From contig JAVRLK010000001.1 in NCBI GenBank assembly GCA_031961545.1, positions 6,596-70,595 on the forward strand: a stretch of 64,000 nucleotides of DNA, in the 5' to 3' direction. Position 1 is the first letter of the stretch. Each line of letters opens with the position of its first letter. A program made the translations under genes and the position numbers. The DNA is from Thermoplasmatota archaeon (GTDB taxonomy: Archaea; Thermoplasmatota; Thermoplasmata; Thermoplasmatales; ARK-15). Under the pieces are notes generated by a model, which saw only the letters and a program-made list of their open reading frames with translations, ran no database searches and had not been told where the DNA came from. Below, one piece after another: positions 2,567 through 44,929 of this stretch.

Positions 2567-4492
2567 ATGGCGGAAGGAAAATTAAATAAAAGGGGAATTG
2601 CTTTTATAATATCCATTATAATTATACTTTCAGGTATTGCTGTCATAGTATATGCTCAATTAAATGAACAGTTAATTTATGTAAGGGTGGTTGATACTAA
2701 TGGAAATCCCATATATAATGCTACAATCCAGGGAATGATGCTTACACCACCATCAAATGGTTCCATATTCCAGACAGTATTTTTAACGCAAACCGAGCAT
2801 AATGGTAATGCAGTTGTTTCAAACTTCACTTTACTTAAAAGGATCTCAAATGAATGGTTAAGATACTACCATGGAAATTTCTCAAAAGCATCCTACCTTC
2901 CAGAGCTGATTCTTTTTGTAACATACAAATTCAATGGAAGTTTGTATTTTAAAGAAGGTAGTATATCCCTCACTCCAAAGGACATTTTAAATGGAATGTC
3001 AGGAAAGGCAGTTGTTGTGGTGAAACATGACAAAAGTGAACATTTAGTGAATGAAACGAATGTTACAACCTCTGTTCAATTAAATTCTTTGGAAAATAAA
3101 ATACAAAATAATATTGGTATCCTTTTACGAAACATTACCTTTCCCGAACCTTATTTTTACTGGGTAATGCAAAATAATACTTTCTATCCATCGAAACCTG
3201 GTCACCTCGCACAGATCCCCATTGCATGGGCTACATTTGCTGGTAGTGCTTATGGCGAGATTGTTACACAAATTGGGGTATTTCCAGCATCTTATGCTGG
3301 CTTGGTTCTTAATCCCTTTTCATCAAAAAATTTAGAATTTAATACTGGTGGTTCGGTTCTCACTGTCGAGTATTCGGGAATTGTAAAAAGTGCTCTAGTA
3401 TTTTTAGGGGACAAAACATTGAATAGGTTTAGCGTTGGATCATCCGGTTACATATATATAATGGGGCAGATTGAACTGGCTACTTATCAATTATATTACA
3501 TTCCTTCTGAAGTAGGAATGCCTGAGCCTCTAAATGACTATATGGCTGAAGCAGCCATTGTTTCTATAAGTACATCAAATAATCAGGTTATATTGGGTAA
3601 TGGAACAGGGATACCTTCTGTATTTTCAAAACTATCGAATTATACAAATTATCAGTTTTATAATGCAAGTAGTGGAACAGGCTCCGCTCCTAACTCCCAG
3701 ATTTTCTCTGGGGAAATTTACCAGAGTTTTGAAAATTACGGACTATTAGTTCAAGCTGTTATACCAATAGGTGAAATTCTTGCTGCAGAAGCTGAACCTG
3801 AAACTGAGATTTTAGGAATAGCCAGCTCAATTGTAGGTGCTATTCTTGGATTTTTTGTATGGCAAAGCTATTCAGGAGCTATGTTTACTACTATTGCTTA
3901 TTGTGCAGCACCTGGGCAAATAGTAGATGCATATGTTCTCTATTCAGATGTATCTTATCAAATAAATGGTCAGGGTTCCATAGAACTACCAATGATGGGT
4001 GCATACATCTACACAACATCATCATCTGGCGGTGGTGGAGAAGGTTGTGTGGTTTACGAAACAAACATCACATTATCAAATGGAGAACAAATACCTGTAC
4101 AGGATCTTAAGGTGGGAATGAAAACACTCTCCTACGATCCAAATACTGGAGAATTAATTACAACAACGGTCTCTCAAATTAAGGTTTTGAATTCTTCTTA
4201 TATTATGATAATAAATGGAAATATTGAGGTGACAGGATTAAACATACAACCAATATTTGTAAAGTTTGAAAATGGATCCGTTGGCTGGACTATGATCGGA
4301 AATTTGAACTATACAATGCAAATATACTGCCCTCTGAATAACACATGGGTTCCCGTAACATCTCTTAAAATCATATTCGGGAATTTCACCGTATATGATA
4401 TAATGACTGCAAGACAGATTTCAGGAGGATACGTTTACAGTGATTACATAGCAAATGGATATCTTTTGGATTCAAAACCAACACCGATATAA
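2567..4492 (+). CDS. secreted or membrane sequon-rich protein with a C-terminal Hint (Hedgehog/intein-like) domain
   Basis: N-terminal signal or anchor GIAFIISIIIILSGIAVIVYA|QL and at least 12 N-x-S/T sequons. A hydrophobic helix ILGIASSIVGAILGFFVW precedes SSSGGGGEG|CVVYETNITLSNGEQIPVQDLKVGMKTLSYDPNTGEL (Cys codon 4046-4048). The protein ends YIANGYLLDSKPTPI. Confidence 0.75.
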   Translation: MAEGKLNKRGIAFIISIIIILSGIAVIVYAQLNEQLIYVRVVDTNGNPIYNATIQGMMLTPPSNGSIFQTVFLTQTEHNGNAVVSNFTLLKRISNEWLRYYHGNFSKASYLPELILFVTYKFNGSLYFKEGSISLTPKDILNGMSGKAVVVVKHDKSEHLVNETNVTTSVQLNSLENKIQNNIGILLRNITFPEPYFYWVMQNNTFYPSKPGHLAQIPIAWATFAGSAYGEIVTQIGVFPASYAGLVLNPFSSKNLEFNTGGSVLTVEYSGIVKSALVFLGDKTLNRFSVGSSGYIYIMGQIELATYQLYYIPSEVGMPEPLNDYMAEAAIVSISTSNNQVILGNGTGIPSVFSKLSNYTNYQFYNASSGTGSAPNSQIFSGEIYQSFENYGLLVQAVIPIGEILAAEAEPETEILGIASSIVGAILGFFVWQSYSGAMFTTIAYCAAPGQIVDAYVLYSDVSYQINGQGSIELPMMGAYIYTTSSSGGGGEGCVVYETNITLSNGEQIPVQDLKVGMKTLSYDPNTGELITTTVSQIKVLNSSYIMIINGNIEVTGLNIQPIFVKFENGSVGWTMIGNLNYTMQIYCPLNNTWVPVTSLKIIFGNFTVYDIMTARQISGGYVYSDYIANGYLLDSKPTPI

Positions 4493-15315: not shown

Positions 15316-16251
15316 TTATAAGTCTTTTTTAACCTTTTTCTTTTTTAAATATACTAATGAGATTGAAATGATTAAAATCACACCTATTGATACTGCGAGA
15401 ATGAAATAATAATTAATTTGCTGTGAAGCACCCATTGGTATGTTTGTGGAATTCAATATTATGCTAGAATTAATCCAACAATAAACCGTGATAGGTCCAT
15501 CAACTAAAGTTGTTATATTTGCATTCCACTTTACTATAATTCCTGAATATTTATCTATATAAGCTGTTGCATTTCCAGAGCTAGAGGTAAGATTATCACA
15601 GAAATTCACTTGTACTTTAATTACAGGATATATTTCATTGTTTATATTTATGGTTAAATTACTACTTGCATTTGCATTTATTTCAGACGGAGGAAATATA
15701 GAAACAATTCCTGTTTCAGGATTGGAACTGCTTCCGAAATCTAATGAAAGTACAGTTGAAAGATTCTTTGGCACAAATCCCTTACTTAATTCATTCAAAG
15801 TTTTTTGGTTTATGAAAAATATAGTGATTGGTTGATTTATGTTTGCAGTTTCATTGAAATATTCTCTAAAATTATAATTAAATGTAAGGTTCCAAAATTT
15901 ATAATTATTCTTGGTAGCTTCAACATCTTGGGGGTATGGAAATAAGGCTATTATAGCAGGATTCCCTGGAACAGATTCAAGATAAGAAAATGTCTGAGTT
16001 TCCTGATTAATAGAAAGAATCTTATATAATAAAATTGAGGTTGTGTTGAGATAAGTATGTTTTGTCTCACTAGTGATATATACATTACTATTTTTTTCAA
16101 AATATTTAACGTAAGCACCTAAAAAAGCCCAGACAGGCTCATTTATGTTATTACCTTCTACAATACTACTGAATGTAAACATAATAAGCAATAAAATTAA
16201 AAAGAATGATATGATTTTGAATTTTTTCAGAGAGTTTTTAACTTTTTTCAT
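15316..16251 (-). CDS. type I membrane protein with many N-glycosylation sequons (signal peptide plus C-terminal TM anchor)
   Basis: N-terminal IISFFLILLLIMFTFSSIVEG and about 11 N-x-S/T sequons. C-terminal TM YYFILAVSIGVILIISISLVYL is followed by KKKKVKKDL. It starts 4 nt after the upstream Hint protein gene. Confidence 0.7.
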   Translation of the reverse strand: MKKVKNSLKKFKIISFFLILLLIMFTFSSIVEGNNINEPVWAFLGAYVKYFEKNSNVYITSETKHTYLNTTSILLYKILSINQETQTFSYLESVPGNPAIIALFPYPQDVEATKNNYKFWNLTFNYNFREYFNETANINQPITIFFINQKTLNELSKGFVPKNLSTVLSLDFGSSSNPETGIVSIFPPSEINANASSNLTININNEIYPVIKVQVNFCDNLTSSSGNATAYIDKYSGIIVKWNANITTLVDGPITVYCWINSSIILNSTNIPMGASQQINYYFILAVSIGVILIISISLVYLKKKKVKKDL

Positions 16252-16255
16252 TTTT

Positions 16256-17332
16256 TCACCCGCATGGATTTGCTATTTTATCCGCAAGCACATATTCCCA
16301 TCCTATAAAATTATGATTTATTAGCAGGACAAAATCATACATTATTATTGGATTATTAACCTTTTCTATAGAAAACACTGGAATGGTTGTATTGGTAATA
16401 GGATCGTATAAAGTATCATTCAATGTTAAATTACTTGCATCTATAAATCCTCTTTCTGTAAGAACCGCTTGATCTCCTGCAATTTCTAAATACCCATTGA
16501 TAACATAACTAGAATTCTCATATGAAATTAGTACCTCCTTCACCATTGCTGGTTGTAATTGACCTGTAGTCATATTATATGTCATTAATTCATCTCCTGC
16601 CGAAATGTCCTGAGCTAAAATATAAGTATAATTTGCTGTTAAAATAGGGGTAGATCCTGATACACAACTTCCTCCACCTTTACCACTTTCATTAAGACCT
16701 CCATTATTTAAAAACTGTTGAACAGTTCCAACTATAAGAGATGAAGTCATAATGCCATATCCATCAGCTTCTGGATAACCAGCAGGATAATTTGGATCAT
16801 TTAAGAACTTTACTTCAACAGTTATATTAAGGGGTAAATTGCTATAATTTACTTCATTTACTGAATTAAGTATAGATAATAGATGTACTTCACAATCTTG
16901 TTCTGATTCATTTAATGTCCAAGCAAAACCAGCTGCAAGATCTTGGTAACTTTGGGGTAAACCTTGTGAAGTTATTATGTACGTGGGAGTGTAAAATGTT
17001 TTAATACCAGATACATTACTAAAAATTTGTATTAGAAAATGAGTATCTCCATTGAAGGTAGTGTTAGCATAAGCCCATAAATTGATAGCAAGCTTACCAG
17101 TAGAAGTATCATTTAAAAAAGTAGCATTCACAGTAATGGATGCCCAATTTCCATGATCATCATATACTTCTGCATAATCATATCCTGGATTATTCTTCCA
17201 GTTATAAACATAGAGAAGTGTTTGTTGACCATGGACTAAAGGGATAACCATGATGATCAAAAATAATGCAACTCCAATAACCATTATTTTATTGTTCTTT
17301 ATTGATTTTCCATAACCCTTTCTCATTTTCAA
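16256..17332 (-). CDS. secreted sequon-rich protein with a C-terminal Hint (Hedgehog/intein-like) domain
   Basis: Signal peptide IMVIGVALFLIIMVIPLVHG|QQ and 8 sequons before the linker. GKGGGS|CVSGSTPILTANYTYILAQDISAGDELMTYNMTTGQL follows (Cys codon 16664-16666). The protein ends NHNFIGWEYVLADKIANPCG. The Hint part aligns with that of 2567-4492. Confidence 0.75.
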   Translation of the reverse strand: MKMRKGYGKSIKNNKIMVIGVALFLIIMVIPLVHGQQTLLYVYNWKNNPGYDYAEVYDDHGNWASITVNATFLNDTSTGKLAINLWAYANTTFNGDTHFLIQIFSNVSGIKTFYTPTYIITSQGLPQSYQDLAAGFAWTLNESEQDCEVHLLSILNSVNEVNYSNLPLNITVEVKFLNDPNYPAGYPEADGYGIMTSSLIVGTVQQFLNNGGLNESGKGGGSCVSGSTPILTANYTYILAQDISAGDELMTYNMTTGQLQPAMVKEVLISYENSSYVINGYLEIAGDQAVLTERGFIDASNLTLNDTLYDPITNTTIPVFSIEKVNNPIIMYDFVLLINHNFIGWEYVLADKIANPCG

Positions 17333-17458: not shown

Positions 17459-18049
17459 ATGATATCTTCATACAAAAAATTTGCATCTGGTGCAAATATG
17501 GATAATATTCCATACCAATATGGACTTTCAATCCCCGGCCATTCGTTTGAATATATAGACGTAAATCCTTCAGATCCTAATATTCATATCTATACAACAT
17601 TGAAACCTCCCAAAAAACCGAGAAAAAAGCTTATGGCTATAATAATTGGTATTATTGTAGTTATTATTGTCATTATGGCAATGGATGTAACAATATTCTC
17701 CAAGCCCATGGTAACAATTTCAGCTGTAGATTTAACCATTTTATATGGTCCGGTACCATTAGGACATAATAGTGAATATTTGGGATACTATTATCGAACA
17801 TTACCCGGATTTAATGCTACTCCCGGAAGTATTGTTGAATATAATATTACGCTCACTTCCACAGCAAGAAATTTGACACATTCCATAATTTCAATATACA
17901 CTCCAACTTCAGGCTTCAGTATTATTTCTGTTTCACCAAGTCTTCCTTATTCATTCCCTCCGGGATCCACATTTACGCTCACACTTTTTATAAAAACACC
18001 TGATGAAAGTCTTTGGGGATTTTTACACATAGATTTAAAAACTTCATAA
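17459..18049 (+). CDS. single-pass (type II-like) membrane protein, function unknown
   Basis: AGGAGG lies 5 nt upstream. PPKKPRKKLMAIIIGIIVVIIVIMAM forms the TM, followed by a beta-rich ectodomain of about 115 aa with sequons. Confidence 0.6.
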   Translation: MISSYKKFASGANMDNIPYQYGLSIPGHSFEYIDVNPSDPNIHIYTTLKPPKKPRKKLMAIIIGIIVVIIVIMAMDVTIFSKPMVTISAVDLTILYGPVPLGHNSEYLGYYYRTLPGFNATPGSIVEYNITLTSTARNLTHSIISIYTPTSGFSIISVSPSLPYSFPPGSTFTLTLFIKTPDESLWGFLHIDLKTS

Positions 18050-18548: not shown

Positions 18549-19772
18549 CTAAAGTGCGAGAGTTCTGCGTATAGGTTCTCTATCGAGAACCATTTCACGC
18601 ATATACTCGCCGTGCCCCGACGAGGGAGCTATACGCTCCAAACCTCTTTTTAATATGTTTATTGATGCATTCAAGTCTCTATCCATATTAATTCCACAAA
18701 CAGGGCATTTGAATACCCTGTTGCTTAATTTTAGCTCATGATTAACATAGCCACAATTTGAACAGGTCTTGCTCGAGTCCTTTGGATCCACCTTTATTAT
18801 CTCTCTACCATATAGTTCCCCTTTCCATTCCAATATACGGAAAAATTCACTCAAAGATATGTATTGCAGATACTTATTCACTTTTCTCCTTACCACTTTG
18901 CTTCCTTTTTCTGATTCCTTCAACTTTTTCAAATTAAGATCTTCCACAACCACATATTCGTGGCTATTGAATATGTGGTTTATCGCCTTGTAATAGAAAT
19001 CTATCTTGATGTTCTGAATTTTCTTCAATATTTTGTCTCTCCTTCTCTCCAATCCCTCTATTCTCTTTGATCTCTTTATTCCCCTCTTTTTGTTTATTGC
19101 ACTTTTCTTATCAATTGTACTCTGCAATCTCTCCTCTTTACGAACCAGAGACATTATTCTCTTTGTCTCCAGTGATATTACTTCTCCATTGCTCATGGTT
19201 ATTGTGTTCTTTACACCCACATCTATGCCTACCGCTTCACCATTCTTTTCTTTTTCCTCTTTCTCCTTTTCGTACACAATGTAAGCAAAGAAACCATTCG
19301 CATCCTCTTTTACCCATACCTGTTTTGCTGTTCTCTTTATTCTATCCCATTCTGCCTTCTTTGTTATCTTGTCCTTGATGCTCACCCATCCAATGCTTGG
19401 AAGATAAAGCTTTATGCCCTCAAACTTAAACCCCTGTGGAAATATCAGTATGCCATCATACCTGCTTTTTTTCTTAAACTTTGGAAATCCTTTCTTTCTT
19501 TTTATTCCATCTTTCAAACTTCTATTCAATTTCCTGGCGATCTGTTGAAGCGTTTGACTTGGAGATTTTTTCAAAAATGGATATTCTTCCTTCATTCTTG
19601 TTATCTCTTTACACATATCCGAATAGAATAGAAATTTCTTCTCTTTTCTGTATATCTCCTTGTTTTTCTCCAGTAACTTATTCCACACAAACCTAATATT
19701 ACCTAATGATTGCTTGAGCAACTGAATTTTTGACCGCCTTGCGTATATTTTAACCTTGATTACACTTCTCAT
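18549..19772 (-). CDS. tnpB: TnpB (RNA-guided RuvC-like nuclease of IS200/IS605)
   Basis: RuvC-I GIDVGVKN and RuvC-II VVVEDLNLK. Zn finger CSNCGY...CPVCG. RuvC-III DRDLNASINI. Confidence 0.9.
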   Translation of the reverse strand: MRSVIKVKIYARRSKIQLLKQSLGNIRFVWNKLLEKNKEIYRKEKKFLFYSDMCKEITRMKEEYPFLKKSPSQTLQQIARKLNRSLKDGIKRKKGFPKFKKKSRYDGILIFPQGFKFEGIKLYLPSIGWVSIKDKITKKAEWDRIKRTAKQVWVKEDANGFFAYIVYEKEKEEKEKNGEAVGIDVGVKNTITMSNGEVISLETKRIMSLVRKEERLQSTIDKKSAINKKRGIKRSKRIEGLERRRDKILKKIQNIKIDFYYKAINHIFNSHEYVVVEDLNLKKLKESEKGSKVVRRKVNKYLQYISLSEFFRILEWKGELYGREIIKVDPKDSSKTCSNCGYVNHELKLSNRVFKCPVCGINMDRDLNASINILKRGLERIAPSSGHGEYMREMVLDREPIRRTLAL

Positions 19773-19820
19773 TTTCCCTATCCCATTGCATCTTTAAGCT
19801 TTATGATCTCACTACTGACA

Positions 19821-20162
19821 TTATCCACTGTGGATACAAAATTTGCCCTTGTCCATAACCTCTGAATCCTTAAATCCAAAATCTGGAAAATATTTTTTTA
19901 ACCATTTTGAAGATATTCCCTTGAAATACTTTACAATCTGAGATGGGACATATCTTGTCGGTGCTGATAAAAATAGATGTATGTGTTCTCGCATAACCTC
20001 ACCTGCTATTATCTCAATCTCATACTTATAGGCTATTTCATAGAATATCTCTTTGAATTTCTTTGCAATTTCCCCTGTTAAAATATGTCTCCTATACTTT
20101 GGTATGAAAATAATATGATAGTTCAACAGATATACTGAATCTCTGGTTGATTTAAACTGCAT
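19821..20162 (-). CDS. tnpA: IS200-type Y1 (HUH) transposase TnpA, apparently C-terminally truncated
   Basis: YHIIFIPKYRR and the HUH motif HIHLFLS. It is only 113 aa, and I find no C-terminal Tyr helix in frame. Confidence 0.7.
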   Translation of the reverse strand: MQFKSTRDSVYLLNYHIIFIPKYRRHILTGEIAKKFKEIFYEIAYKYEIEIIAGEVMREHIHLFLSAPTRYVPSQIVKYFKGISSKWLKKYFPDFGFKDSEVMDKGKFCIHSG

Positions 20163-30904: not shown

Positions 30905-31022
30905 CTCAAAAGCCTATTAAAAATTCATTATTTAAACATTTTACACTTTAAGTTAATGTTCATTTTCGTTAATTTTTGAAGATTAAAAGAATTTAAATAT
31001 TTCTTCAAATTACCATTTTCAA

Positions 31023-31108
31023 TGGGGAGCTTCTGAAAGAGGCTGAGAGGATTCCTGAATGAGGAATCGACCCATTGAACCTGATCCGGGTAATACCGGC
31101 GGAGGGAT
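31023..31108 (+). promoter_or_regulatory. TPP (THI-box) riboswitch
   Basis: GGGGAGC..GCUGAGA-GGAUUCC..GGAAUC-G-ACCC-AUUGAACCUGAUCCGGGUAAUACCGGCGGAGGGA matches the THI element core. Its 3' GGAGGG doubles as the SD, 6 nt before the ATG at 31114. Confidence 0.9.
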
Positions 31109-31113
31109 TAATT

Positions 31114-32358
31114 ATGGAAATAAAAAAATCGGTAAGAAAAACGGAATATCAGAAGGGACTTTTGATTTCATCCTCCATGGGTATGTTTGTCTGGGGTATT
31201 ATTGCTGCGATAGCTCCACTGACCACATCATGGCCATTCATTGAAACATTGCCAAAGATTTACGAAAGTATATTCCTTTTTTTACCAACAACATTCATGA
31301 TGATTGGTAATCTTATTTTTGGCGTTCTTGCAGATTACGTGGGCAGGAAGAGAATATATCTTACAACAATCTTTCTTTATGCTGCAGGCTTCTTTACAAT
31401 CTTTTTTGCAAATAATGTATACATTTTAGTTCTTGGTATTGCACTGAGTGAACTGGGTGTTGGTGGTGAGGAGGTTACAACTCTATCATTAATATCTGAA
31501 GATATACCTGTAGAGGAAAGAGGATTGTATCTTGTTTTTGTTCCAAACATGAACAATATTGGTAGCACAGTCATTGCCTTCATATTCCTTTACTTTTATT
31601 CTTCATCAATATATATACAAAAATTATATTTTGTTGGTGTAGCACTATTTGCAATTTCCATTGCAGTTATTACAAGATACAGGGTTCCAGAATCTTTCAG
31701 ATGGCTTAGGGATGTAGGTAAAAATAAGGAAGCAATTGAAGAAATGAAAAAAATATCACTCACACCTGAACCAAAGAAGGTAAAAGCACCAAGTTTCGTG
31801 CCAACTCTCTTATTCCTCGGTGTACTTGGAATTTCACAGTATTTAACTTTTGGTCTCATGGCATATATAATTGGACCTTACTATTTCCCACAAAATAGCA
31901 GTTTGATAATTTTCATGGCATCTCTTGGTGCATCGGTTGCTGGCTTTATAGCCATGTATGCAATAAATATAAGCAGGAAAATTTTCGCACTGTTCTCCTA
32001 CTTTGGTGGTTTTATTACAACAATACTCATACTTTATTTGTTTAACATCTTTGAAAATTTCTATATATTCCTGATAATGCTTTTCATAAACATGATGTTT
32101 TCTGAATTTGCATGGGCAACAAGGACAACACTTGAACCTGAACTTTTCCCCACAAAAATAAGATCCACCGCTATTGCACTAATCAGAATTTTCCCAATGA
32201 TATCATATATATTTTCAGTTTTTTTCACAGCCACATTTACTTTACAGCAATTTATAATTTACAATATTGTTCTCTGGGGCATCGGGGCGATCTTTACTTT
32301 GATATGGTATTTCATTGGAATTGAAACAAAAGATATCAGTATGGACTTCATTCAATAA
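31114..32358 (+). CDS. MFS-type transporter, riboswitch-controlled (candidate thiamine or precursor transporter)
   Basis: About 12 predicted TM helices and an MFS loop DYVGRKR. The start was moved to the ATG at 31114 because the tracked start (31075) lies inside the riboswitch. Confidence 0.75.
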   Translation: MEIKKSVRKTEYQKGLLISSSMGMFVWGIIAAIAPLTTSWPFIETLPKIYESIFLFLPTTFMMIGNLIFGVLADYVGRKRIYLTTIFLYAAGFFTIFFANNVYILVLGIALSELGVGGEEVTTLSLISEDIPVEERGLYLVFVPNMNNIGSTVIAFIFLYFYSSSIYIQKLYFVGVALFAISIAVITRYRVPESFRWLRDVGKNKEAIEEMKKISLTPEPKKVKAPSFVPTLLFLGVLGISQYLTFGLMAYIIGPYYFPQNSSLIIFMASLGASVAGFIAMYAINISRKIFALFSYFGGFITTILILYLFNIFENFYIFLIMLFINMMFSEFAWATRTTLEPELFPTKIRSTAIALIRIFPMISYIFSVFFTATFTLQQFIIYNIVLWGIGAIFTLIWYFIGIETKDISMDFIQ

Positions 32359-44840: not shown

Positions 44841-44929
44841 TTTCAGGTAGGCGTTATCAGCCAGCACAAAAACTGGCGGTTTACTTAGGTGGAAACGCCA
44901 TTCCACGGATTTCACTACATTTATATGAA

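Follow-up and report, generated by a model that had tools for sequence, protein, structure and literature searches.

The window analysed here, a 64,000-nucleotide stretch of DNA from a Thermoplasmatota archaeon, encodes on its minus strand (16256..17332) a protein with a predicted signal peptide whose final domain is a genuine Hint-fold module, with a likeness to Hint structures far beyond chance. Judged against its relatives, this domain is not a one-off degenerate copy but a member of a clade with its own residue set. We incline, with modest confidence, to the view that the product is an exported N-glycoprotein whose last 136 residues form a BIL-like Hint autoprocessing module, self-cleaving via a thioester.

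Protein layout and the Hint fold

The open reading frame, which ends in a stop codon at 16256-16258, gives 358 aa from TTG 17332. In NCBI's call for the same gene, P0001, translation begins two codons further on, at ATG 17326, for a product of 356 aa. This ATG has GGAGGT 6 nt upstream and is therefore the more probable start. Residue numbers used below for the window Hint protein follow the 358-aa numbering, and all features of this gene lie on the minus strand. The gene is also supported by homologues, which are 54%, 49%, 46% and 40% identical to the window protein.

A hydropathy scan found only one hydrophobic segment above threshold, at the N-terminus (residues ~10-42). The predicted signal peptide (aa 1-35; 17228..17332) comprises a basic n-region, an 18-aa hydrophobic core and the motif V-H-G|QQ. 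Small residues at -3 and -1, followed by Gln, are kept in orthologues (A-H-A|Q in P0002, A-K-G|Q in the L004 protein), and the signal peptide is probably removed after Gly35. The passenger domain that follows (aa 36-216, 181 aa; 16685..17227) is beta-rich and carries 8 N-glycosylation sequons. Pfam and NCBIfam scans of this region gave no match, and it could not be assigned to a fold or family; in the full-length AF2 model it has a pLDDT below 50, with strands predicted nonetheless. Next come a Gly-rich linker, GKGGGS (16667..16684), whose Ser222 is the -1 residue of the predicted scissile bond, the Hint domain itself (aa 223-351, 129 aa; 16280..16666), and a C-terminal tail, KIANPCG (16259..16279), which is disordered in the model.

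N-x-S/T sequons are not confined to the passenger. Residues 1-222 contain 8 and the Hint domain contains 6 more, so that the mature protein has 14, compared to 4.9 +/- 1.9 in 2000 shuffled sequences, none of which reached 14. One of those in the Hint domain, NLT, is conserved in the near-family alignment. Both the enrichment inside the Hint domain and the conserved NLT suggest that this domain is placed outside the cell.

Evidence for the fold grew with the depth of the profile. Used singly, the window sequence gave only E=0.1, to a DnaX mini-intein. A 5-sequence family profile matched the BIL domain 2lwy at E=8e-4, and a 38-sequence profile run against the PDB matched 2lwy at E=1e-12, 7cfv at E=3.8e-10 and BIL2 at E=1.3e-9. 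The full-length AF2 model (pLDDT 47) still matched Hint folds; a domain-only model of the Hint domain, with a pLDDT of 91 and a pTM of 0.84, was used instead. With this model, Foldseek returned 62 PDB matches at E<=1e-3, and all 50 of the matches listed are Hint-fold proteins. TM scores were 0.87/0.81 to BIL2 (6y75) and 0.82/0.84 to the BIL domain 2lwy, the latter with an rmsd of 2.0 A. Hedgehog structures (TM 0.70, 6tyy) rank 44th among the matches listed, after BIL domains and many mini-inteins.

Curated domain models were less responsive. For the window protein, Pfam reported no Hint model even at E<=10, and NCBIfam reported nothing. Some relatives gave Pfam matches below the cut-offs, to Vint (E=0.0047), PT-HINT (0.001-0.11) and Intein_splicing (0.27), and a few more distant clade members have precomputed matches to PF13403 or PF14890.

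In the HMM alignments, the block-B Thr is matched by Ala285, the block-B His by Gln288 and the terminal Asn by Asp351. Codons were checked for the nucleophile position, Cys223 (16664-16666), for Gln288 (16469-16471), for Asp333 in block F (MYDF; 16334-16336), for Asp351 (16280-16282) and for Cys357 in the tail (16262-16264), which is conserved in the near subfamily. The domain thus reads AGDQ at 285-288, where T-x-x-H is canonical, and NHNFIGWEYVLAD ends in Ala350-Asp351, at the His-Asn position. A sequence-only reading of this DNA had proposed a signal-peptide protein ending in a Hint module, and the profile and structure searches bear it out, as does the superposition that it suggested as a check (TM 0.82-0.87 to BIL domains, 0.70 to Hedgehog). 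Its statements on residues (GKGGGS before Cys223, AGDQ for T-x-x-H, a terminal Ala-Asp for His-Asn) agree with the sequence and the alignments, and so does its count of 8 sequons ahead of the Hint domain. Its estimate of about 6 residues after the domain falls one short of the actual 7, and it named no strand. The profile check against known Hint families succeeded in part: the PDB search was positive, the Pfam Hint models negative.

Gln/Glu-type domains and known Hint families

Conservation was counted on the domains found in the best 150 of 1846 relatives, which are not phylogenetically independent. Within that set, 66 domains are of the Gln type. Position 1 is Cys in 47 of these and Ser in 12, which accounts for 59 of the 61 with an aligned residue there; at -1, 45/66 have Gly or Ser, block F has Asp in 56/66, and Asp stands at the terminal or penultimate position in 47/66. 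In the 38-sequence alignment, whose members are 29-79% identical to the window domain with a mean column identity of 44%, the Gln288 column keeps Gln in at least 90% of sequences. Ser at position 1 pairs with Glu in block B (Fisher p=2e-6), and among the relatives listed the terminal Asp accompanies Cys1. The close homologues, at 40-54% identity, retain every key residue.

His-type relatives from the same search have T-x-x-H in 74 and His-Asn in 71 of 118 domains, and mostly Asn in block F. An NJ tree computed after masking of the catalytic columns sets them apart as a clade of their own and places 82 of the 89 Gln/Glu-type domains in one pure clade. This purity, obtained without the catalytic columns, argues that the Gln/Glu residue set is an inherited, maintained state. 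By alignment, the signature of the clade is Cys or Ser at position 1, Gln or Glu in block B, Asp in block F and Asp for the terminal Asn. The altered residues are therefore not a sign of decay: the entire clade conserves them, which speaks for a different kind of active site and against one that is being lost. The interchange of Cys and Ser at position 1 fits a nucleophile, not a disulfide partner.

On the tree, then, this is a near-monophyletic Hint clade, previously undescribed, whose named members so far are Thermoplasmata. Literature searches for a C-terminal Hint domain in archaea or Thermoplasmata returned nothing relevant, in keeping with the earlier remark that no archaeal example has been characterised. 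A locus search with the 5-sequence alignment found two loci only, both in one Thermoplasmata MAG, and a protein homologue search with the domain alignment added few useful members. The named organisms nearest to the window are Aciduliprofundum-like Thermoplasmata. These have an S-layer, which weakens an earlier argument from a wall-less lineage. Acid peptidases are fused to, or encoded beside, clade members, and from these proteases and the Aciduliprofundum-like affinity of the window alone, most clade members would appear to be acidophiles.

The position of the domain within its host is similarly constrained. Among the best 150 of 1846 relatives, the C-terminus of the protein lies no more than 11 residues from the Hint domain in 61 of the 66 Gln-type domains; in His-type relatives the domain can be anywhere in the protein. 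Gln-type passengers are diverse exported proteins, including S8/S53 (sedolisin-type) peptidases with a pro-kumamolisin domain. In one relative, P0126, the Hint domain separates the passenger from a TM anchor, which would make sense only if the passenger-Hint junction is cut. Tandem C-terminal Hint copies occur in the Glu-type subgroup. From these architectures, the module is probably a portable C-terminal processing cassette carried by many unlike exoproteins. If the domains are active, exoproteins of Thermoplasmata, secreted acid proteases among them, would mature or be anchored via a shared autocatalytic C-terminal cassette, a mode undescribed in archaea.

Among known systems, BIL domains (2lwy of Clostridium thermocellum; BIL2 of the Tetrahymena BUBL, 6y75/6tmm) are the best match to the window domain both in sequence (E=1e-12) and in structure (TM 0.82-0.87, rmsd 2.0-2.6 A). 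They are known to self-cleave rather than splice. Common to both are a length of ~135-150 aa with no endonuclease insert, variable and often secreted hosts, Cys1 after small residues, and no obligatory +1 nucleophile. The A and B types of BIL domain are attributed, in the summary given by PMC5874633, to Amitai et al. 2003 and Dassa et al. 2004. Unlike BIL domains, with T-x-x-H and, in the A type, His-Asn, the window domain has Ala-x-x-Gln and Ala-Asp; BIL domains lie between two flanks, whereas domains of this clade come last, with a tail of 0-11 aa in 61/66 Gln-type cases; and the hosts here are archaeal.

Mini-inteins (Spl DnaX 7cfv, Ssp DnaB 1mi8, Npu DnaE and others) share the fold (TM 0.75-0.81), the block order A-B-F-G and the block-F Asp. 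The window protein differs in having no exteins, no Asn, no Cys, Ser or Thr at +1, and a host that is not conserved. We rejected an intein identity: Ala350-Asp351 is followed by Lys352, with 7 residues to the stop codon, and the host is a variable secreted protein. A PT-HINT or toxin identity was likewise rejected, as no domain follows the Hint module and the downstream gene encodes a 311-aa surface/membrane glycoprotein, not a small cytoplasmic immunity protein.

Likeness to Hedgehog and Hog proteins is one of architecture: a signal peptide, a secreted passenger, a Gly-rich junction, Cys1 and a C-terminal Hint domain of the same fold (TM 0.70 to 6tyy) with no C-terminal splice junction. The junction itself is Ser-Cys-Val here and Gly-Cys-Phe in Hedgehog. 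Hall et al. reportedly found in 1997 that Hedgehog needs the SRR for sterol transfer. The same need is given in PMC2362128, where Hog is defined as Hint plus SRR/ARR. A Hedgehog/Hog identity is not supported, since no SRR/ARR follows the Hint domain and Hedgehog structures come only 44th among the Foldseek matches listed. The window protein has neither a sterol/adduct region nor T-x-x-H, and BIL domains and mini-inteins are structurally nearer to it. The sequence-only reading had called the module Hedgehog/BIL-type and drawn a cholesterol analogy; with BIL domains nearer and the SRR/ARR region absent, that analogy is left without structural support.

Bacterial secreted proteins with a divergent C-terminal Hint-like domain (from Myxococcus, Stigmatella, Photorhabdus and others) were reported by Burglin 2008 (PMC2362128), and also by Dassa & Pietrokovski, and described as a further Hint subgroup of unknown function (PMC2362128). 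Compared by description only, they resemble the window protein in that a signal peptide and an unrelated N-terminal region precede a Hint-like domain right at the C-terminus, and differ in that they are reported to keep motifs A and B. A secreted passenger with a terminal Hint domain, best known from Hedgehog/Hog, exists in archaea too, and the archaeal architecture bears on the question of the origin of Hog and Vint domains (PMC2362128).

Proposed cleavage chemistry

Splicing is excluded, as had already been concluded from the sequence, because there is no C-extein, the block-B Thr and His are absent, the domain ends in Ala-Asp instead of His-Asn, and the +1 residue is Lys352, with 7 residues to the stop. 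For a domain of this composition, only N-terminal (thio)ester chemistry would be conceivable. Its likeliest function would be self-cleavage at Ser222|Cys223 through a thioester, by an acid-adapted active site. With a cut at this bond, the predicted junction peptides are a passenger end of ...FLNNGGLNESGKGGGS and a Hint fragment starting with CVSGSTPIL.

In this mechanism, Sec export and removal of the signal peptide after Gly35 would be followed by folding of the Hint domain outside the cell, in a mildly to strongly acidic medium. An N-to-S acyl shift would move the Ser222 carbonyl to the Cys223 thiol, with Gln288 polarising the scissile bond or the oxyanion and Asp333 and Asp351 acting as a proton shuttle instead of His. 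Block homology leads us to expect that Cys223, Gln288, Asp333 and Asp351 cluster in space. The thioester would then be resolved, by default by water, and a glycosylated passenger of ~187 aa would be freed from the 136-aa Hint fragment.

Low pH favours N-to-S and N-to-O acyl shifts, as it protonates the amine that is freed. There is precedent, too, for a carboxylate or amide replacing His in acid-active hydrolases, namely the sedolisins (Ser-Glu-Asp) and eqolisins (Glu-Gln). The parallel lies in the use of Glu, Gln or Asp for His at low pH and is an analogy of catalytic logic only, the folds of these enzymes being unrelated to Hint. If the domains are active, Hint chemistry can run without the block-B His, on a carboxylate/amide set that would parallel the Ser-Glu-Asp and Glu-Gln solutions of the acid proteases, and the cassette could provide a naturally acid- and heat-tolerant self-cleaving or thioester-generating tag for protein engineering.

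Several points count against thioester cleavage. The canonical block-B Thr is also absent from the window domain. Of all intein residues, the block-B His is the most strongly conserved, and Gln is unable to shuttle protons. In favour of the mechanism, a few natural inteins do lack this His and compensate (PMC6333167). In the Tko CDC21-1 inteins the acyl shift is possible without it (PMC6333167), but these have a bulky Leu at -1; the residue here is Ser or Gly, so this known steric compensation does not apply. Where the -1 residue is small, the block-B His is essential in Ssp DnaB (PMC6333167).

Neighbouring genes and alternative readings

Only 4 nt after the Hint gene, on the same strand, begins a gene for a 311-aa protein (15316..16251), predicted to have a signal peptide, a glycosylated beta-rich ectodomain, a C-terminal TM helix and a KKKKVKKDL tail. 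A homologue of this partner, 44% identical, occupies the same position in L001, and a gene for a membrane or surface protein lies immediately 3' of the Hint gene in L002, L004, L010 and L012 as well. The close homologues examined are part of a two-gene unit with a surface or membrane protein. The sequence-only reading had overlooked both this conserved downstream gene and the second Hint protein of the window (2567..4492). Larger relatives have a conserved upstream gene, abutting the Hint gene, for an N-anchored protein. In the near subfamily, the Hint module may work with the product of the next gene, which at some of the examined loci is a surface protein anchored in the membrane. At a distance of 1.2 kb from the Hint gene there is an IS200/IS605 element.

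These neighbours matter for a variant in which a specific nucleophile takes the place of water in resolving the thioester. The Hint domain would then be an ATP-independent extracellular ligase or anchor, and the passenger would be tethered covalently to the surface. The acceptor could be a hydroxyl on a membrane lipid, lipoglycan or N-glycan, comparable to cholesterol in Hedgehog, or else the co-encoded membrane protein, through its N-terminus or one of its side chains, comparable to isopeptide formation by BIL2. We consider this unlikely, if attractive on several counts. A generic C-terminal cassette on unrelated, otherwise anchorless exoproteins resembles known sorting and anchoring signals, and a suitable partner is at hand: in the window, L010 and L012 it combines a signal peptide with a C-terminal TM helix and a Lys-rich tail, in L001 it is homologous to that of the window, and in larger relatives the abutting upstream gene could supply it. 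BIL2, a top structural match, makes isopeptide conjugates, so that Hint conjugation to Lys is known from experiment (PMC8616854). On the other side, the Gln-type domains have no SRR/ARR-like adduct-binding region, with 0-11 residues after the Hint domain in 61/66. The L002/L004 partner has no clear TM anchor, and between different loci phmmer found no significant homology among partners and hhalign gave 37% probability over the N-terminal 60 residues, so these are positional analogues only. General chemistry cuts both ways: at low pH hydroxyls are still available and thioester hydrolysis is slow, but amines are protonated and poor nucleophiles.

Extended to the whole clade, the Gln/Glu-type cassette may be an archaeal ATP-independent extracellular ligation device for sortase-free surface anchoring, its active site (Cys/Ser-Gln/Glu-Asp-Asp) re-invented for low pH, a proposal that we regard as rather a long shot. 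Such a device would form a (thio)ester at the new C-terminus of the passenger in acidic medium and hand the passenger on to the co-encoded membrane protein or to a hydroxyl on a membrane lipid, lipoglycan or glycan. By analogy, it may be the prokaryotic counterpart of Hedgehog cholesteroylation or BUBL conjugation.

It is also improbable, in our estimate, that the domain has no catalytic activity and is retained for a structural, oligomerisation or surface-binding role, Cys223 and the acidic residues being needed for folding or ligand binding. Such a role would be in line with the joint loss of the block-B Thr and His and of the His-Asn pair, with Pfam Hint models under threshold, with the tandem C-terminal copies of the Glu-type subgroup, which are typical of wall- or surface-binding repeats, and with the inactivity of block-B His mutants of standard inteins that have a small -1 residue (PMC6333167). 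It fits poorly with a Cys or Ser that follows a flexible Gly/Ser linker at position 1 in 59 of 61 aligned Gln-type domains and interchanges as nucleophiles do, and with Gln/Glu, block-F Asp and terminal Asp columns that are among the most conserved and co-vary with the type of nucleophile. The placement of the P0126 domain between passenger and TM anchor also speaks for cleavage. If the domains are inactive nonetheless, the family, missed by current domain databases, would be a clear case of a Hint fold put to non-catalytic use.

In the near subfamily, Cys223 and Cys357 might form a disulfide, either as a redox trap that allows processing upon reduction only or as a staple of the domain ends; we think this very doubtful. 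Cys357 is invariant in the five closest sequences (5-sequence alignment), the two termini of a Hint domain come together at its active site, the protein would be extracellular, and redox-trapped inteins exist, one of which (PDB 3nzm) is among the Foldseek matches. However, most members of the clade have no Cys in the tail, the occurrence of such a Cys in 14/47 Cys1-type versus 2/21 Ser1-type relatives is not a significant difference (p=0.12), and the tail is disordered in the model. Such a bond would, moreover, modulate the thioester mechanism, not replace it.

We find it hardly credible that the domain is what decay left of an intein, or of a polymorphic-toxin PT-HINT deprived of its C-terminal cargo. 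In favour are the nearby IS200/IS605 element and the weak matches that some relatives have in Pfam to PT-HINT, Vint and Intein_splicing. The reading is contradicted by the cargo-less C-terminal architecture of 61/66 Gln-type relatives, a coherent clade under clear constraint, key residues that are all kept in homologues of 40-54% identity, and hosts that are variable exoproteins rather than conserved intein hosts.

The window holds a second protein of the same type. An hmmsearch of its open reading frames with a profile of the family identified, at E=2e-29, a 641-aa protein encoded on the plus strand (2567..4492), which has a signal anchor at its N-terminus and carries a Gln-type Hint domain at its C-terminus. 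The corresponding residues are Cys494 (nt 4046-4048), Gln561, Asp611 and Asp635, and the tail reads SKPTPI.

Organization and fold of the Hint protein

The Hint gene occupies 16256..17332 on the minus strand and encodes 358 aa when read from a TTG. The database version of the protein (P0001) starts instead at ATG 17326, two codons downstream, and with GGAGGT located 6 nt ahead of it this ATG is probably the start codon. Strand and start fill gaps in an earlier, sequence-only reading, whose residue-level statements all proved correct when sequence and codons were verified. In the TTG numbering, the protein consists of a signal peptide (residues 1-35, ending V-H-G before QQ), a beta-rich N-terminal part or passenger (36-216), a GKGGGS linker, the Hint domain (Cys223 to Asp351; 129 residues, codons verified) and a tail, KIANPCG. 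The tail is short, as had been noted, although it numbers seven residues rather than about six.

Apart from the N-terminal segment the protein has no hydrophobic stretch, and the mature protein contains 14 N-x-S/T sequons (4.9 ± 1.9 expected from shuffling), six of which fall within the C-terminal Hint domain. The protein is extracellular in character. One sequon, N-L-T at residues 301-303 (motif A-x-NLT-x-ND), is kept throughout the close clade, and its conservation implies that the Hint domain would be glycosylated outside the cell. There are exactly three cysteines: Cys147 in the passenger, Cys223 at position 1 of the Hint domain and Cys357 in the tail. Two related proteins, P0002 and P0005, likewise have one Cys in each of these parts, and the passenger cysteines of the three proteins do not align. 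It is conceivable that a passenger-tail disulfide could hold the fragments together after cleavage.

The C-terminal domain is a Hint domain. Pfam and NCBIfam scans of the protein did not recognise it, and the single sequence matched a DnaX mini-intein no better than E=0.1. A profile built from the five nearest homologues (40-54% identical to the query) matched the Clostridium thermocellum BIL (bacterial intein-like) domain 2lwy at E=8e-4, and a profile of 38 family domains matched 2lwy at E=1e-12, the Spl DnaX mini-intein at 3.8e-10 and Tetrahymena BIL2 at 1.3e-9. Modelled with AlphaFold2 on the 38-domain alignment, the domain gave a mean pLDDT of 91 and a pTM of 0.84. When this model was compared with the PDB by Foldseek, only Hint-fold proteins appeared among the 50 matches listed, with TM scores of 0.87/0.81 for BIL2, 0.82/0.84 for 2lwy (rmsd 2.0 Å), 0.74-0.81 for mini-inteins and 0.70 for Hedgehog. 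A significant Hint-fold match, set beforehand as the test of the proposed C-terminal Hint module, was therefore obtained by both family profile and predicted-structure comparison.

BIL domains are the nearest known relatives. They self-cleave (PMC5874633), and BIL2 conjugates a ubiquitin-like passenger to lysines (PMC8616854). In architecture the protein resembles Hedgehog/Hog proteins but lacks the adduct-binding region (SRR/ARR) that defines the Hog domain (PMC2362128). Tested against the defining motifs of inteins, Hog, A-type BIL and PT-HINT, the domain fits none of them and is therefore classed here as a new variant inside the Hint superfamily and outside these four groups. Bacterial secreted proteins that end in a divergent Hint domain, themselves uncharacterised, are also mentioned in the literature (PMC2362128). 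Literature searches on such archaeal Hint domains found no paper.

A clade of Gln- and Glu-type domains

HMM alignments place Ala285 and Gln288 at the block-B Thr and His positions, Asp333 at block F (Asp or Asn) and Ala350-Asp351 at the terminal His-Asn. The family profile was run exhaustively with HMMER against 1.84 billion representatives and returned 1846 proteins at E<=1e-3 (248 at E<=1e-10). Domains of the best 150 of these were re-aligned and grouped by their residue in the block-B His column, giving 118 of His type, 66 of Gln type and 28 of Glu type. Position 1 is Cys in 113/118 His-type domains, Cys (47) or Ser (12) in 59 of the 61 aligned Gln-type domains, and Ser (18) or Cys (5) among the 28 of Glu type. 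Block F has Asn in 101/118 His-type domains and Asp in 56/66 Gln-type and 24/28 Glu-type domains. The C-terminal end is His-Asn in about 72/118 of His type, and Asp is terminal or penultimate in 47/66 of Gln type; Glu-type ends are mostly unaligned. Placement also varies: His-type domains occur anywhere in the protein, often in tandem arrays, Gln-type domains lie <=11 residues from the C-terminus in 61/66 cases, and Glu-type domains form C-terminal tandem pairs.

In a neighbour-joining tree built with the six catalytic columns masked, one pure clade apart from the His type holds 82/89 Gln/Glu-type domains. Ser1 goes with Glu at block B (Fisher p=2e-6) and, in a residue listing, terminal Asp goes with Cys1. 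The counts in this comparison are not phylogenetically independent. Given the conserved residue types and the pure clade, the 'degenerate' residues pointed out in the sequence-only reading are, from this comparison, the maintained signature of a distinct subfamily, and not the decay of a single copy.

A tandem pair of C-terminal Hint domains occurs in the Glu-type subgroup and also in one protein of Gln type (P0047, P0051, P0061, P0066, P0073, P0078, P0081, P0102). In these pairs the nucleophile is usually Ser, within an 'SV.G' motif, and the sequence runs to the stop as '...NGYLIT', the terminal Asp being absent.

Predicted activity

On sequence grounds, protein splicing is excluded, as already held in the sequence-only reading, because only seven residues trail the domain and the +1 residue is Lys. 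Following Sec export, the protein would fold outside the cell, an N-to-S acyl shift would take place at the Ser222-Cys223 bond, and resolution of the thioester would set the passenger free. Cys223-dependent self-cleavage by either route, hydrolysis or transfer, appears likely, and we somewhat favour thioester hydrolysis as the best explanation. That the thioester is handed to another nucleophile seems unlikely, and the suggested transfer to a lipid was not upheld.

It is also doubtful that the Hint domain is a non-catalytic module. Against activity, the block-B His, the most conserved intein residue, is missing, and the -1 residue is Ser or Gly, not bulky as in the few natural inteins lacking this His; in Ssp DnaB, with a small -1 residue, the His is essential (PMC6333167). 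Against a non-catalytic role, position 1 alternates between Cys and Ser, straight after a flexible linker, and Gln/Glu and two Asp are strongly conserved where the Hint active site is lined. The four active-site positions are conserved and co-vary across the clade, in counts that are not phylogenetically independent. Moreover, one relative, P0126 (610 aa), consists of a passenger, a Hint domain of Gln type whose first residue is Ser, and a 39-aa membrane-anchoring tail with a TM helix and basic KRKHK, an order that makes sense only with a cut junction and suggests shedding through self-cleavage. The Hedgehog-type mechanism put forward earlier is not supported, SRR/ARR being absent and the Hedgehog TM only 0.70 vs up to 0.87 for BIL.

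Sedolisins (Ser-Glu-Asp) and eqolisins (Glu-Gln) follow the same logic of His replacement. By analogy, the change from His/Asn to Gln/Glu plus Asp would be chemically sensible for a domain working outside an acidophile, because low pH favours acyl shifts to Cys or Ser.

Carriers and gene neighbourhood

Relatives carry diverse exported passengers with cleavable-looking signal peptides. Among these are peptidases of the S8/S53 type, one of them bearing a pro-kumamolisin activation domain; others contain CarboxypepD_reg or Ig-like domains or are repeat proteins with the motif 'ESGLPSG..W.V'. In two loci, neighbour genes encode a Peptidase_A4 and a pro-kumamolisin protein. The named sources are Thermoplasmata MAGs, one of which bears two paralogues. 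A second exported Hint protein (641 aa) is encoded in the window at 2567..4492 on the plus strand. Its terminal Gln-type domain (profile E=2e-29), GGGGEG/CVVYETN...NIQPIF...VYDIM...NGYLLDSKPTPI up to the stop, belongs to the 'TDQP / NG.LLD.K' subgroup, in the same clade as the first.

A minus-strand partner gene (15316..16251) begins 4 nt past the end of the Hint gene. Its 311-aa product is a type-I membrane glycoprotein: a signal peptide leads into a beta-rich, glycosylated ectodomain, which is followed by a C-terminal TM helix and a tail reading KKKKVKKDL. Among the loci carrying relatives, L001 has a homologue in the same position (44% identical). Directly after a small Hint protein, L010/L011 and L012 encode a protein of 400-412 aa in which a signal peptide precedes a beta-propeller-like ectodomain, a TM helix and a Lys-rich tail; L002 and L004 have a downstream gene for a 304-317-aa signal-anchored glycoprotein. 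Upstream in L006 (3278..4000) and L009 (3223..3999), homologous genes (phmmer E about 1e-7) for a conserved 240-258-aa N-anchored glycoprotein, with no family assignment, have stops abutting the starts of Hint genes encoding exoproteins of 694 and 820 aa. Homology between partners from different loci was not demonstrable; judged from these sequences, what is conserved is the arrangement of Hint gene plus partner gene, not the partner family.

A divergently transcribed gene at 17459..18049 (plus strand) encodes a 196-aa type-II membrane protein without a family match; its cytoplasmic N-terminus of ~57 aa is joined by a TM helix to an ectodomain that is small and beta-rich. Upstream of the Hint gene, at a distance of 1.2 kb, is an IS200/IS605-type element (18549..20162, minus strand) that comprises a TnpB/Cas12f-like OrfB (18549..19772) and the Y1 transposase TnpA (19821..20162). 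The ornithine carbamoyltransferase of the window is closest to those of Thermoplasmata MAGs, with 76% identity to Aciduliprofundum sp. and 67% to A. boonei. Two riboswitches score above the Rfam gathering threshold: a fluoride riboswitch (44841..44914, minus strand; 45.1 bits) and a TPP riboswitch (31013..31124, plus strand; 78.7 bits) just upstream of ORF 31075..32358, the latter consistent with Thermoplasmata.
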